Positions 7,528 through 12,123 of a stretch of DNA of 64,000 nucleotides are shown piece by piece. The first letter of the stretch is position 1. Every line of letters starts with the position of its first letter. Below the pieces are notes generated by a model. That model worked only from the letters and a program-made list of their open reading frames with translations, was not told the origin of the DNA and searched no databases. A program made the position numbers and the translations under genes. Source of the stretch: Escherichia phage vB_Eco_slurp01; sequence record LT603033, one strand, 5' to 3'.

Positions 7528-7755
7528 ATGACAAATACTCTTAAGTACTACCTCAATACTCTAAATGAACTAGAGTACGGGGAATTTCTCGCGGATAGTT
7601 CGTGGCTAATTGAGCTAAAAAATTATAATAGTCCAGGATGCACCCTTATGATGAACAATGCAATTGATACCCTCATTGTGAGTATTTTACACAGCAACAT
7701 CTGCGGGGATAGCAATAAACAATTATCAAAAATCTTAGTACTGCTATCTATATGA
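7528..7755 (+). CDS. Small protein, tandem paralog family A
   Basis: ORF track; ATG after TAAGGAGA RBS. Confidence 0.6.
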   Translation: MTNTLKYYLNTLNELEYGEFLADSSWLIELKNYNSPGCTLMMNNAIDTLIVSILHSNICGDSNKQLSKILVLLSI

Positions 7756-7955
7756 ATATCGAACAGTACTACATCGATGCACTACCAACAAAAGGTCTAC
7801 GTGAAAGCCTACTGCATACACAAACTAATTTCAAACACCTCAAACGTAGCCCTAAACTCCTGAACTCGTACAGGAATAATAACATAAGAAATGCTTTACA
7901 AGGGGTAGAATGTATGCAATACTATTACATCCTTACCCTATTAATCGAGTACTAA
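7752..7955 (+). CDS. Small protein, family A
   Basis: ORF track; ATGA overlap with upstream stop. Confidence 0.6.
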   Translation: MNIEQYYIDALPTKGLRESLLHTQTNFKHLKRSPKLLNSYRNNNIRNALQGVECMQYYYILTLLIEY

Positions 7956-7956
7956 T

Positions 7957-8166
7957 ATGAATACTGAACATAAAGAATTCTACACCAAATACCTTAGCAA
8001 CGAAGAACAATTGTTTCTAAGGAGTGTATCACCTGTAAGTACCAATACTCAATTCGGTAGAGATTGCTTTAATAATTGTATACGTAGTACTCTAGAAGCA
8101 ATCGAATGCAATAACAAAAATATTATGTACTCAGGTTTAATAGGACTAATATATTTCTATGAATAA
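7957..8166 (+). CDS. Small protein, family A (MNTEHKEFYTKYLS type)
   Basis: ORF track; close paralog of 11333..11542. Confidence 0.65.
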   Translation: MNTEHKEFYTKYLSNEEQLFLRSVSPVSTNTQFGRDCFNNCIRSTLEAIECNNKNIMYSGLIGLIYFYE

Positions 8167-8353
8167 TCATAAAGATTTCTATTGTAGTAAACTACCCAAA
8201 CAAGAACAGCTATCATTCTCTTTAGCACCACCTATGAGAAAGGATAATCTGTATTATAATTACGATTTCAGGATAGAGACACGTGATGCAATAGAACATA
8301 CGTTCCCTGCAACTAAGTACCGCTCTATCCTGAACCTCATCTTTAAGTTCTAA
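8159..8353 (+). CDS. Small protein, family A
   Basis: ORF track; overlapping start. Confidence 0.6.
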   Translation: MNNHKDFYCSKLPKQEQLSFSLAPPMRKDNLYYNYDFRIETRDAIEHTFPATKYRSILNLIFKF

Positions 8354-8363
8354 AAGGTGCTAT

Positions 8364-8573
8364 ATGAAAACTACAAACATTCATCAGTACTACATAGATA
8401 TTCTCCCTAAAGATGTACAGTTCATACTTAAACAAGAATTCAGTACTTTAAAAAAACTAAAAAGAACCGCACCTTCAGCAATCATCCAGCACCAAAAAAA
8501 TGTCGTGCGTAATATACTACAAGGTACACCAGGGACCGAGTACTTTAATATAGTAAGGCTAATTACATTATAA
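8364..8573 (+). CDS. Small protein, family A
   Basis: ORF track. Confidence 0.6.
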   Translation: MKTTNIHQYYIDILPKDVQFILKQEFSTLKKLKRTAPSAIIQHQKNVVRNILQGTPGTEYFNIVRLITL

Positions 8574-8758
8574 TGAATCATATAAGCTACTACTACCAAC
8601 AACTATCCGACAGAGACAAGTACAGTCACAACTCTCATGTGTGGTACTACAAACGCGGCAGTATAAGAGACAAACAACATTACTTCTGTGTTTCTATTAA
8701 AGAAGCACTTACAACTAAGTACACGTACCGAGCAGTACTTAAACTTATTGAAATGTAA
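8573..8758 (+). CDS. Small protein, family A
   Basis: ORF track; start overlaps upstream stop. Confidence 0.6.
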   Translation: MNHISYYYQQLSDRDKYSHNSHVWYYKRGSIRDKQHYFCVSIKEALTTKYTYRAVLKLIEM

Positions 8759-8765
8759 GGAAGAC

Positions 8766-8954
8766 ATGAACACTTTTGAGTACTACTTCAATAAACTAAG
8801 CTCCATAGAACAACAGATGCATAACTCATATATTAAGCACTATCAATCATCTGTACCTGAAATTAAAAACATATCGATTGAGGTTATCACTGACAGGGTA
8901 CTGTCATCGGAACGTTATATGTATATTGATGTACTGAAACTAATCTCTATATAA
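8766..8954 (+). CDS. Small protein, family A
   Basis: ORF 8688..8954 trimmed to ATG after GGAAG (MNTFEYYF). Confidence 0.55.
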   Translation: MNTFEYYFNKLSSIEQQMHNSYIKHYQSSVPEIKNISIEVITDRVLSSERYMYIDVLKLISI

Positions 8955-8962
8955 GGAATAAA

Positions 8963-9145
8963 ATGAACATAGAATTCTATTTAACTAAACTACAACACGC
9001 CGAAAGATTCAACTTCAATAAGTTCAATATTTTCTACAATTGCGGGAACAAAAAAGATAAACACACCTTCCTATATGTCGTCACAAGAGATGCACAAAAC
9101 GAAAAGTACACATACAGAGAAGTAATGAAACTAATCTCTATATAA
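8963..9145 (+). CDS. Small protein, family A
   Basis: ORF track; AAGGAAT RBS. Confidence 0.6.
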   Translation: MNIEFYLTKLQHAERFNFNKFNIFYNCGNKKDKHTFLYVVTRDAQNEKYTYREVMKLISI

Positions 9146-9153
9146 GGAATACT

Positions 9154-9333
9154 ATGCAACAATTCTATATAGAACGTATAACCATAAAAGACCGTTTCAT
9201 GTACGACACATTCGTTGATTACTACAAACTAGGAACAAAAAGTACTAAAAATATTAATCTCAATAGCTGCATTTATGCTGTACTAACACAAGATAATCCC
9301 TACAGGGAAATCCTCGCCCTGGCATCTATATAA
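9154..9333 (+). CDS. Small protein, family A (59 aa, below ORF-track cutoff)
   Basis: Own translation MQQFYIERITIKDRF...LALASI; AAGGAAT RBS; fills gap in array. Confidence 0.5.
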   Translation: MQQFYIERITIKDRFMYDTFVDYYKLGTKSTKNINLNSCIYAVLTQDNPYREILALASI

Positions 9334-9343
9334 AGGAAACCAA

Positions 9344-10571: not shown

Positions 10572-10572
10572 T

Positions 10573-10755
10573 ATGCACAAAGAATACTACACACAATTTC
10601 TCCCCAGCATTTTTGAACACTACGCCAGATACAAAGTCCCTATGGATAACGATTTGGCAGTACTGGGATTCAATAACTGCATAGAACGAAGTATAGAAAA
10701 TAGTAGTAGTTATGACCAGCTATATAACACTATCCTACTTATATTCAGGTACTAA
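10573..10755 (+). CDS. Small protein, family A
   Basis: ORF track. Confidence 0.6.
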   Translation: MHKEYYTQFLPSIFEHYARYKVPMDNDLAVLGFNNCIERSIENSSSYDQLYNTILLIFRY

Positions 10756-10756
10756 C

Positions 10757-10945
10757 ATGCATAAAGAATACTACACAAAATATTTCCCAATGTACCTCAG
10801 AACTAATCTATTAGATAAACCTCGCGGTATCAATGCACAAAATGATAAAGTGTACTTTACTATGTGCACTAAAGCATGTATACTAGATTTTGACAGCTAT
10901 CATCGAGTACTGTATCATACCCTGTACCTAGCTTTCGTATTCTAA
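10757..10945 (+). CDS. Small protein, family A
   Basis: ORF 10712..10945 trimmed to MHKEYYTKYF. Confidence 0.55.
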   Translation: MHKEYYTKYFPMYLRTNLLDKPRGINAQNDKVYFTMCTKACILDFDSYHRVLYHTLYLAFVF

Positions 10946-10954
10946 GAGAACAAT

Positions 10955-11140
10955 ATGCATAAAGAATTCTACTTAAGCCATCTCGATCTAAACTCCCAAA
11001 TGCTTATACCACTAATCCCAATAGATATCAAGGATAAGAAAAATACCGAACAATTCATTTACCATACACAGTGTGCGATCACCCCAAATTACATTCCATA
11101 TGAATTGTACTACATTATCGCCCTAATATATAGGTACTAA
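10955..11140 (+). CDS. Small protein, family A
   Basis: ORF track. Confidence 0.6.
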   Translation: MHKEFYLSHLDLNSQMLIPLIPIDIKDKKNTEQFIYHTQCAITPNYIPYELYYIIALIYRY

Positions 11141-11141
11141 T

Positions 11142-11327
11142 ATGCATAGAGAATACTACACACAATTTGTTAAAGGGAACTACAAACATGCCGTACCCAG
11201 AACCCCTTTAAATTCTCATGACCCAAGTACTATATTCTTGTTCCATGACGCAATACGTACAGTACTCAATACTAAAGATGAAGATGTGCAGTACGTATTC
11301 TTACTATTACTTATATACAGACACTAA
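11142..11327 (+). CDS. Small protein, family A
   Basis: ORF track. Confidence 0.6.
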   Translation: MHREYYTQFVKGNYKHAVPRTPLNSHDPSTIFLFHDAIRTVLNTKDEDVQYVFLLLLIYRH

Positions 11328-11332
11328 CTAAT

Positions 11333-11542
11333 ATGAATAAAGAACATAAAGAATTCTACTCCAAATACATAAGCCCCTCAGAACAAATGTTTCTAAGGAC
11401 TACTCCACCTTTAAGTACTAATACATTTTTCGGCAGAGTATGCTACAATAATTGTATTCAAATGACTTTAAACGCAAACGAAGATGGTAACAGTACTAAC
11501 CTGTACTCAGGTATCATAGGTATACTATTCCTGTATGAATAA
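11333..11542 (+). CDS. Small protein, family A
   Basis: ORF track; paralog of 7957..8166. Confidence 0.65.
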   Translation: MNKEHKEFYSKYISPSEQMFLRTTPPLSTNTFFGRVCYNNCIQMTLNANEDGNSTNLYSGIIGILFLYE

Positions 11543-11723
11543 TTACAAAGACTTCTATTTGAATACACTACCTACTGTACTTTCTCTAAGTGCTCAATGT
11601 AAAATCCCCCTGGATAATGCTTACGCCAGATATAGCTATTCCATAACTGTTAATCGATGTATAGAGAATCATTGCAGTACTAACCAGTACTATAACATAA
11701 TCCTACTTATATTCAGGTACTAA
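11535..11723 (+). CDS. Small protein, family A
   Basis: ORF track. Confidence 0.6.
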   Translation: MNNYKDFYLNTLPTVLSLSAQCKIPLDNAYARYSYSITVNRCIENHCSTNQYYNIILLIFRY

Positions 11724-11724
11724 T

Positions 11725-11907
11725 ATGAATAAAGAACATAAAGAATTCTATATACGAAAACTAACATTCGTCCCCGTAAGAATATATAAAGAATGCGACC
11801 CAAGATTATACCTATGGCACTTCAATGAGTGCATAAAAGATTCTATATACCCTAAGAACTATAAAGAACAATTGTGCTCAGTACTAACACTAGTACTATC
11901 ATATTAA
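11725..11907 (+). CDS. Small protein, family A
   Basis: ORF track. Confidence 0.6.
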   Translation: MNKEHKEFYIRKLTFVPVRIYKECDPRLYLWHFNECIKDSIYPKNYKEQLCSVLTLVLSY

Positions 11908-11922
11908 TTAATAGAGAATACT

Positions 11923-12123
11923 ATGTATAAAAACTTCTATATAAGTAAACTAAAAGAAAATGAACAAGTATGGATTAGATCTATAATTCCACTGGCATTT
12001 AATAGATATGCATTTAACAGATGTACCGAGATTGCTATAGACCCTTATAATATTAAAGAGAATGTACAGTATAATCAGTATAATCAGTACTACTATATCT
12101 TAATGATTATATATAGGAAGTAA
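11923..12123 (+). CDS. Small protein, family A (last member)
   Basis: ORF track. Confidence 0.6.
   Translation: MYKNFYISKLKENEQVWIRSIIPLAFNRYAFNRCTEIAIDPYNIKENVQYNQYNQYYYILMIIYRK

Follow-up and report, generated by a model that had tools for sequence, protein, structure and literature searches.

A tandem family of small paralogous genes beside the terminal repeat of Asteriusvirus jumbo phages: predicted coupled expression and a possible early repertoire of host-directed proteins

Introduction

Blocks of host-takeover or pre-early genes occupy the terminal repeats of bacteriophages SPO1 and T5, and poxviruses form gene accordions, as in K3L amplification, in which a host-interaction gene is present in near-identical and transient copies. 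Among jumbo phages, 121Q and G have been described as having arrays in which over 30 similar genes lie in tandem (Hua et al., 2017, PMC5646251; 2026 review, PMC13282480), and Bacillus phage G carries a zinc-ribbon expansion of about 35 copies (Iyer et al., 2021, PMC7824862). This article describes an array of small paralogous genes, here termed family A, in a 64,000-nucleotide stretch of the genome of Escherichia phage vB_Eco_slurp01 (sequence record LT603033), which is referred to as the window and whose positions are used throughout. The region of the window that holds the array is 86-97% identical to Escherichia coli jumbo phages that belong to the genus Asteriusvirus, among them 121Q, PBECO4, G17, and JP4. 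Development against pathogenic E. coli is under way for jumbo phages of the 121Q/PBECO4 group, and more than 80% of their genes are unassigned.

No publication that deals specifically with family A, the anatomy of its junctions, or the place where it lies was found in a literature search. The array published for 121Q is most likely not family A but an unrelated family of the same window, family B, which is described below with the genomic context.

Organization of the array

The interval 7528-12123 holds 21 back-to-back genes on the + strand, as the initial annotation had placed them, comprising 20 small genes (59-75 amino acids, aa) and one larger gene, g10 (9344-10015), that encodes 223 aa. 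The "about 24" paralogs originally counted were too many, since 19 of the 20 small genes are solid members of family A, g01 is doubtful, and g10 is unrelated. Open reading frames (ORFs) of at least 55 aa on the + strand cover 98% of the interval, against a mean of 3% and a maximum of 21% in 300 first-order Markov simulations; the array is therefore not a product of chance. A profile of the 20 proteins searched against both strands of the window returned those 20 only, which it matches by construction, whereas leave-one-out profiles recovered 18 of the 20 members and none of 700 background ORFs. The two genes that were missed are g01 and g09, and the latter is joined to the family through BLAST links to g06-g08 (E 2e-7 to 8e-6). 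Identity between paralogs within the array ranges from 20 to 59%.

The first gene, g01 (7528-7755, 75 aa), is intact in all relatives and has a weak partial BLAST link to g07. It shares an ATGA overlap with g02 (7752-7955, 67 aa), which forms a subcluster with g05 (8364-8573, 69 aa; missing in 121Q and JP4). Between these lie g03 (7957-8166, 69 aa), which is 59% identical to g18, and g04 (8159-8353, 64 aa), which overlaps g03 by 8 nt and pairs with g19. The subcluster g06-g09 consists of g06 (8573-8758, 61 aa), g07 (8766-8954, 62 aa, with its start taken as the ATG at 8766; missing in G17 and 121Q), g08 (8963-9145, 60 aa), and g09 (9154-9333, 59 aa). Beyond g10, g11 (10008-10190, 60 aa) starts at the ATG at 10008, so that it overlaps g10 by 8 nt, and is followed by g12 (10192-10371, 59 aa; missing in G17 and 121Q), g13 (10380-10571, 63 aa), g14 (10573-10755, 60 aa), g15 (10757-10945, 62 aa, starting at the ATG at 10757), g16 (10955-11140, 61 aa), and g17 (11142-11327, 61 aa). 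The pair g18 (11333-11542, 69 aa) and g19 (11535-11723, 62 aa), which overlap by 8 nt, is missing in G17 and 121Q, and the array is completed by g20 (11725-11907, 60 aa) and the final cistron, g21 (11923-12123, 66 aa).

The larger gene g10 matches phrog_29152 and stays mid-array in all relatives examined. The idea that it is a family A member with a large loop insertion was rejected, as spliced constructs of its N- and C-terminal parts scored at most 6.3 bits vs up to 13.8 bits for shuffled controls. It has no Pfam or PDB match, and its AlphaFold2 model, with a predicted local distance difference test (pLDDT) score of 46, is of too low a quality to be used in a fold search. The coding strand of the array has a negative GC skew (-0.14 to -0.23) and a strongly positive AT skew, unlike the + strand genes past 12 kb.

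Gene junctions and translational coupling

Neighboring genes meet at 20 junctions, of which 5 overlap, 6 abut, and 9 have spacers of 5-15 nt. The initial annotation, which had most starts overlapping or abutting the preceding stop, thus holds for 11 of the 20 junctions and fails for the remaining nine, most of which bear a purine run resembling a Shine-Dalgarno (SD) sequence, such as TAAGGA. The best-conserved DNA of the array is a stretch of 45-70 nt that bridges the end of a gene and the beginning of its successor. Where a protein ends in R-Y-stop, the DNA reads AGG-TAC-TAA-N-ATG, with the AGG 7 nt ahead of the next ATG, and this AGG is read here as the SD sequence of the following gene; the C-terminal Arg codon is AGG in six of seven such genes, whereas at other sites of the array only 7 of 45 Arg codons are AGG. 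The alternative ending, LISI-stop, leads into TAAGGA. Four genes (g02, g11, g13, and g18) have no SD sequence and start within or a few nucleotides past the preceding gene, an arrangement that fits re-initiation. Coupled operons are recognizable in sequence by genes that lie on the same strand, overlap or are separated by at most 1 nt or carry an embedded SD sequence, and are uninterrupted by an internal terminator, and all of these features are present, so that the array is predicted to be a translationally coupled polycistronic operon.

Promoter and transcript

A gap of 84 bp separates g01 from the first of the minus-strand genes upstream, which encode proteins resembling RCC1, and houses both a sigma70-type promoter and the strong SD sequence of the first cistron, TAAGGAG (7513-7519, + strand), which was read from the sequence and is conserved in the genus alignment. 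The promoter (7474-7502, + strand) has the form TTGACA-N17-TACTAT, with CAGTACTG in the spacer, and matched 10 of 12 positions in a consensus scan. Across eight genus members, including the divergent JNE01, its -35 element is invariant and its -10 element is TACTAT or TACAAT; the alignment spanning the gap is 90% identical in these eight and better conserved than the genes.

No terminator-like site was found in a scan of the + strand between 7528 and 12123. Right after the last stop codon lies a long imperfect hairpin (12126-12234, + strand) that lacks a T-run; the RNA fold of 12110-12300 has an energy of -55.3 kcal/mol (z = -4.2), and none of 200 shuffled sequences was as stable. The hairpin is a possible 3' end or stabilizer of the transcript. 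No known RNA family (Rfam) was found between 7 and 15 kb.

Because the sigma70-type promoter is conserved, no internal terminator is present, and stops and starts overlap, the array would be expressed as one coupled, polycistronic transcript of early type, and the dependence of this single message on the host polymerase is likewise well supported by its signals. The proposal in the initial annotation of one strong promoter and a single polycistronic early transcript stands in these respects, and is qualified by a second promoter-like site within g15 (10890-10918, + strand; TTGACA-N9-GAGTACTG-TATCAT, an 11/12 match). This internal site fits the promoter consensus of the adjacent terminal repeat, and six of eight relatives retain it, with a -35 element that is sometimes weakened, but its conservation proves nothing because it lies in coding sequence.

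Coding status and selection

Selection was assessed from the ratio of non-synonymous to synonymous divergence (omega, dN/dS) in comparisons with the seven relatives that gave adequate counts. Pooled omega lies between 0.34 and 0.61 in the annotated frame and between 0.9 and 1.5 in both other frames. In the comparison with BF17, 123 of 699 synonymous and 245 of 2862 non-synonymous sites differ (two-proportion z of about 5.9 by our own arithmetic). Family A ORFs are intact in all verified relatives examined, and broken copies occur solely in the TH47 record, which is marked UNVERIFIED. Because purifying selection is frame-specific and the copies are intact, the family A ORFs are judged to be true coding frames that are conserved as protein. 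An array that is a mere artifact of repeated DNA, the possibility that the initial annotation had set against its motifs, is ruled out by this frame-specific selection.

The gene ends are nevertheless also molded by signals at the DNA or RNA level, namely embedded SD sequences, AGTACT enrichment, and recombination repeats, and dS at C-terminal codons is 0.14 vs 0.23-0.26 elsewhere in family A genes. Nucleotide-level constraint laid over real coding sequence therefore accounts for part of the motif conservation that was noted earlier.

Divergence is faster in the array than around it: in the comparison with BF17, array genes have a dN of 0.091 (omega 0.45), terminal-repeat genes 0.017 (0.17), and genes at 32-46 kb 0.025 (0.37). 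Array dS, at 0.20, likewise exceeds the 0.07-0.10 of its neighbors.

Copy-number change

Relatives carry 14-22 copies of family A in a conserved gene order, and orthologs of the array genes are common across the genus. Relative to G17, which is 97% identical, the differences at g07, g12, and g18-g19 involve the gain or loss of complete units, and the alignment blocks that flank them overlap by 28-39 nt of junction repeat. Such overlaps are interpreted as the signature of unequal homologous recombination, and recombination at junction repeats would explain why isolates carry 14-22 copies. The pairs g03-g04 and g18-g19, which share 75% DNA identity over 246 nt, represent an old duplication of two genes. 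Divergence can be deep, as the members in JNE01 are just 27-57% identical to those of the window.

The conserved gene ends thus appear to have three jobs, as protein terminus, as translation signal, and as 28-39-nt recombination repeat. This triple use would account for the conserved look of the termini around drifting cores, and it offers a clear example of overlapping constraints.

Protein features and predicted fold

Among 130 unique family A members from nine genomes, Tyr8 is invariant in 129, and the shared termini of the initial annotation are borne out as N-terminal [KR][ED][FY]Y and C-terminal L-x-L-I-[YF]-R-Y or LKLISI. The frequent pairs of Cys residues that it also described are not typical: 11 of the 20 members in the window have one Cys, three have none, and six have two or three, and the only semi-conserved position is C39 (67 of 130 members). 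A zinc-binding or zinc-ribbon mini-protein was rejected on this pattern of mostly zero or one Cys and on the lack of CxxC pairs.

Structure prediction, also proposed at that stage, was applied to g13 as a representative. The AlphaFold2 model, built from a 56-sequence alignment, has a pLDDT of 91.8 and helices at residues 4-10, 14-17, 30-45, and 49-62, and family A is confidently predicted to be a small all-helical protein. Besides Tyr8, the conserved hydrophobic-core columns are L12, F36, C39, I/T40, L44, Y53, I56, L57, L59, and I60, while residues 13-35 and 45-52 are hypervariable and variable in length. On this one scaffold the isoelectric point (pI) spreads from 4.7 to 10, and about half of the members are basic (pI 8-10). 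Gly, Ala, Val, Asp, and Glu are scarce (18% in total), and Tyr (10.4% of residues), Asn, Ile, and Leu are abundant.

Distribution of the family

No family A protein has a Pfam match or a PDB sequence match, and no structural relative was found outside Asteriusvirus; one member has a weak match to P22_Cro (E 0.064). In PHROGs v4, 13 of the 20 members match phrog_11711 (best E 5e-28), and the core of the family was thus already clustered in a public library. The remaining seven lie outside that cluster, one matching phrog_36118 only and six matching no PHROG at E <= 0.01, and phrog_11711 itself carries no annotation of function, structure, or context.

Searches of tblastn type on phages found family A in 33-35 records, all of them Asteriusvirus. 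A profile search of 5.8 billion proteins gave 36 matches, and an exhaustive HMMER search of 1.84 billion representatives gave 34, of which 33 are mini-proteins of 41-69 aa and the sole long one, P0062, was dismissed as a tandem-repeat artifact. A search of IMG/VR returned 121Q itself only, and complete E. coli genomes gave no match that would point to a carrier or prophage state. Neither the word-indexed search nor HMMER, tblastn on phages, or IMG/VR brought up remote homologs other than Asteriusvirus-type proteins, and the profile search envisaged in the initial annotation therefore led to no relatives beyond this type. The family A hidden Markov model matched nothing, even at E <= 10, in Munch and fENko-Kae01, phages of the sister group in which the RCC1-like array directly adjoins the terminal repeat or the record end. 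Their lack of the family, together with the confinement of all matches to Asteriusvirus, indicates that family A is an insertion specific to this genus.

Genomic context

The array fills the last 4.6 kb or so of unique DNA ahead of a long direct terminal repeat, and in G17, BF17, and the window it stops 265-400 nt short of the boundary of that repeat. The repeat is exact over 20,590 bp in BF17 and corresponds to window positions 12,519 to about 32,218; the window therefore reads through a collapsed copy of it. Gene coordinates in G17 repeat at an offset of 350,149, which gives a repeat of 20,668 bp, and the PhageTerm value for Sharanji is likewise 20,668 bp. Between the array and the repeat, Tandem Repeats Finder reports a perfect tandem repeat of 3.3 x 60 nt (12314-12509, without strand assignment), which contains TCAGTACTGA and ends where the terminal repeat starts. 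The first 1.8 kb or so of the terminal-repeat stretch is non-coding and rich in repeats, with degenerate 16/24/48-nt repeats of the GGCTAAACGG type at 13334-13433 and a 2.6 x 53 nt repeat at 14061-14200.

About a dozen strong sigma70-type promoters lie in the terminal repeat, with the consensus TTGACA-N9-nAGTACTG-TATAAT, in which AGTACTG abuts the -10 element. Promoters of this class are found on the + strand at 12884-12911, 15714, 17772, 22156, 22738, 24473, 25782, 26052, 28913, 30116, and 30883, and on the opposite strand at 15886 and 51068.

Upstream of family A, on the minus strand, stand six RCC1-like (beta-propeller) paralogs of 369-433 aa (258-7443), homologs of which are virion proteins in phAPEC6 (PMC7247149). 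The phAPEC6 virion proteome table passes straight from gp347 to gp549 and lists no family A protein, although a protein of 4.7 kDa was detected (PMC7247149); for proteins of 7 kDa this absence is weak negative evidence.

Beyond the terminal repeat lies family B, a series of 28 contiguous mini-genes of 52-90 aa (32286-38649) with ATGA-type overlaps and a conserved LGTNYQE motif, which matches phrog_4148. With genes at 40226-40635 and 54004-54195 the family totals 31 members of 52-95 aa. A relationship between families A and B was rejected (hhalign probability 1.3%). Given this unrelated and larger array in the same window, and the tandem arrays published for 121Q and phage G, each with over 30 genes (PMC5646251), it was an overstatement to call a large contiguous expansion of a mini-protein family unusual. 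Further tandem paralog families occur at 41342-43307 and 48277-58818 (146-188 aa, phrog_19795 and phrog_9317; and 53-127 aa), and lineage-specific expansions make up most of the window.

Within the array, AGTACT falls in all three frames (8/8/9). Ser-Thr is encoded AGT-ACT in eight of nine cases (1.1 expected) and Val-Leu is encoded GTA-CTN in 13 of 13 (6.6 expected), and conserved protein positions 6, 52-53, and 62 account for about half of the GTACT sites in the 18 window genes that were placed on the alignment. The density of AGTACT there exceeds the average of the window by a factor of only about 1.5. In the window as a whole AGTACT occurs 264 times vs about 19 expected, no other palindromic hexamer coming near, and synonymous codon choice makes the site in all three frames. 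It is over-represented 11-20 times in BF17, G17, and JNE01 and in the sister-genus phages Munch and fENko-Kae01; a literature search found nothing specific on AGTACT in Asteriusvirus. Deserts with 0-3 copies per 2 kb lie at 32000-38000, starting at the end of the terminal repeat and coinciding with the family B array, and at 40000-48000; in the 40-48 kb genes TAC-Txx codon pairs number 0 vs 9.6 expected, while AGTAC without a following T is still common. Four palindromic hexamers are absent from the window, GGTACC (7 expected), CCATGG (9), AGGCCT (5), and CGTACG (4), which looks like restriction-site avoidance, in contrast to the AGTACT excess.

Possible roles of the array

The account preferred here combines the anatomy of the operon with a role for its products as a repertoire of small proteins that are made early and bind host targets. 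Host RNA polymerase would transcribe the array early as one message, ribosomes would re-initiate from cistron to cistron along it, and unequal homologous recombination between junction repeats would add or remove whole cistrons. The products would be small binding proteins, neither virion nor enzymatic, that present differing surfaces on one scaffold to host targets. The genetic anatomy is very probably as predicted from the sequence. That the products are small binding proteins for host take-over or counter-defence is a tentative and rather doubtful proposal, put forward because their surfaces are variable, their charge is not conserved, their promoter is of host type, and they appear not to be virion proteins, and also because the family diverges fast, turns over unit by unit, and is restricted to a single genus. 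The account as a whole is credible, if a little short of probable. A wider version, in which families A and B, flanking the terminal repeat, are both recombination-driven repertoires that neutralize variable targets in host defence or physiology, is unlikely. In this version each family would have a fixed small scaffold with variable surfaces, and its cistrons would be shuffled one by one through junction repeats that also act as ribosome-binding sites.

Several observations weigh against the preferred account. Positive selection on the variable segments was not seen, ortholog omega being 0.26-0.49 in every segment, and any signature of an arms race therefore depends on gene turnover alone. 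The high dS of the array could come from recombination with diverged alleles and not from selection. The promoter-like site within g15 may split the transcript, and the early timing of expression is suggested by promoter type alone. A literature search found no transcript, ribosome, or intracellular-protein evidence for the array in Asteriusvirus. Selection on the array is, moreover, relaxed relative to the terminal-repeat genes (omega about 0.45 vs 0.17), which would also suit near-neutral genomic filler, in which junction repeats near the genome end keep duplicating and deleting a tolerated small gene. The high turnover, with whole units gained and lost among 14-22 copies, and the lack of any homolog of known function agree with filler, as does the genome expansion by tandem duplication proposed by Hua et al. 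for 121Q and phage G (PMC5646251). Neutral copies should, however, decay to pseudogenes, and broken ones are confined to the UNVERIFIED TH47 record; in verified genomes the copies are intact, and paralogs old enough to be only 20-59% identical keep their core residues, including Tyr8. Omega is significantly below 1 in the coding frame only, and the promoter, SD, and coupling signals are conserved, so that filler is judged improbable.

Other explanations give the proteins, or the DNA, a role within the phage. The divergent orientation of the array, directly beside the six-gene RCC1-like array (258-7443), would suit mini-proteins that serve their neighbors as paralog-specific assembly chaperones or adaptors, all the more as both families are multi-copy and RCC1-like paralogs are found in phAPEC6 virions (PMC7247149). 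Yet Munch and fENko-Kae01 have large RCC1-like arrays and no family A gene, the copy numbers of the two families are unmatched, the promoter is of host sigma70 type and resembles the early promoters of the terminal repeat, and the phAPEC6 virion proteome (PMC7247149) includes none of the array proteins, which makes such a partnership quite improbable. Slightly weaker still is the case for small DNA-binding or transcription-modulating proteins that act on the phage itself, for example by recognizing AGTACT. The 11- to 20-fold excess of this site and its place in the terminal-repeat promoter consensus, the basic pI of about half of the members, and the single weak P22_Cro match would agree with such regulators, but AGTACT is equally enriched in Munch and fENko-Kae01, both without family A, and one invariant site needs no twenty divergent copies. 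Charge is unconserved, some members having a pI of 4.7-6, and the long helices of the model (16 and 14 residues) read as a hairpin and not as a helix-turn-helix (HTH). It is very improbable indeed that the region serves chiefly as a cis-acting DNA element close to the genome terminus, for recombination, packaging, or replication, with incidental ORFs. The repeated junction DNA, the AGTACT sites forced into three frames by synonymous choice, the depressed dS at gene ends (0.14 vs 0.23-0.26), and the 265-400 nt that separate the array from the terminal-repeat boundary would be expected of such an element; against it stand the frame-specific purifying selection, the 98% ORF coverage on one strand, the confident fold predicted for g13, an AGTACT density only about 1.5 times that of the window, and sister genera that have the same terminal repeat without the array.

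If the wider version, with families A and B as paired repertoires, were true, family A would be a new class of phage proteins for counter-defence or take-over, novel in structure and equipped with its own mechanism of diversification. The array offers about twenty natural variants of one 60-residue scaffold under one promoter, with a content that varies between isolates, and is therefore a compact, testable system for small early phage proteins and their diversification. Until a host target comes to light, the practical consequences are modest.

Comparison with known systems

Lineage-specific tandem expansions in jumbo phages are already known (PMC5646251, PMC7824862, PMC13282480), and most of family A is present in PHROGs. 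The arrays of 121Q and G are, like family A, lineage-specific tandem expansions of a small hypothetical gene, and 121Q belongs to the same phage group. The zinc-ribbon expansion of phage G shares with family A the large, lineage-specific multiplication of a mini-protein in a jumbo phage, but family A lacks CxxC pairs, has mostly single Cys residues, and is predicted to be all-helical.

Anti-CRISPR and other anti-defence loci resemble the array in their small, fast-evolving genes of early type, which lack detectable homologs and vary in content between relatives; such loci are mixtures of unrelated genes, whereas family A is one expanded family. For an Aca-type HTH regulator near the array, no Pfam HTH was found, and PADLOC gave noise only. 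The blocks of SPO1 and T5 likewise comprise many small genes at or near a long direct terminal repeat with strong host-type promoters. Family A differs in lying just outside the repeat, in forming one polycistronic unit in place of many units with their own promoters and terminators, and in the mutual paralogy of its genes, and a terminal-repeat host-takeover module of the SPO1/T5 type was rejected on the 265-400 nt by which the array lies outside the boundary. As in poxvirus accordions, copy number shifts by recombination between tandem units, but the copies of family A are old (20-59% identity) and recombination would use only the short conserved junctions. An accordion of the poxvirus type, for which near-identical recent copies are expected, was rejected on the identity of these paralogs and on the genus-wide occurrence of their orthologs. 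Beside these systems, what is new is the delimitation of family A, its confidently predicted orphan fold, the triple duty of its gene junctions and the recombination breakpoints that fall in them, and the finding that mini-gene arrays of two unrelated families flank the terminal repeat.

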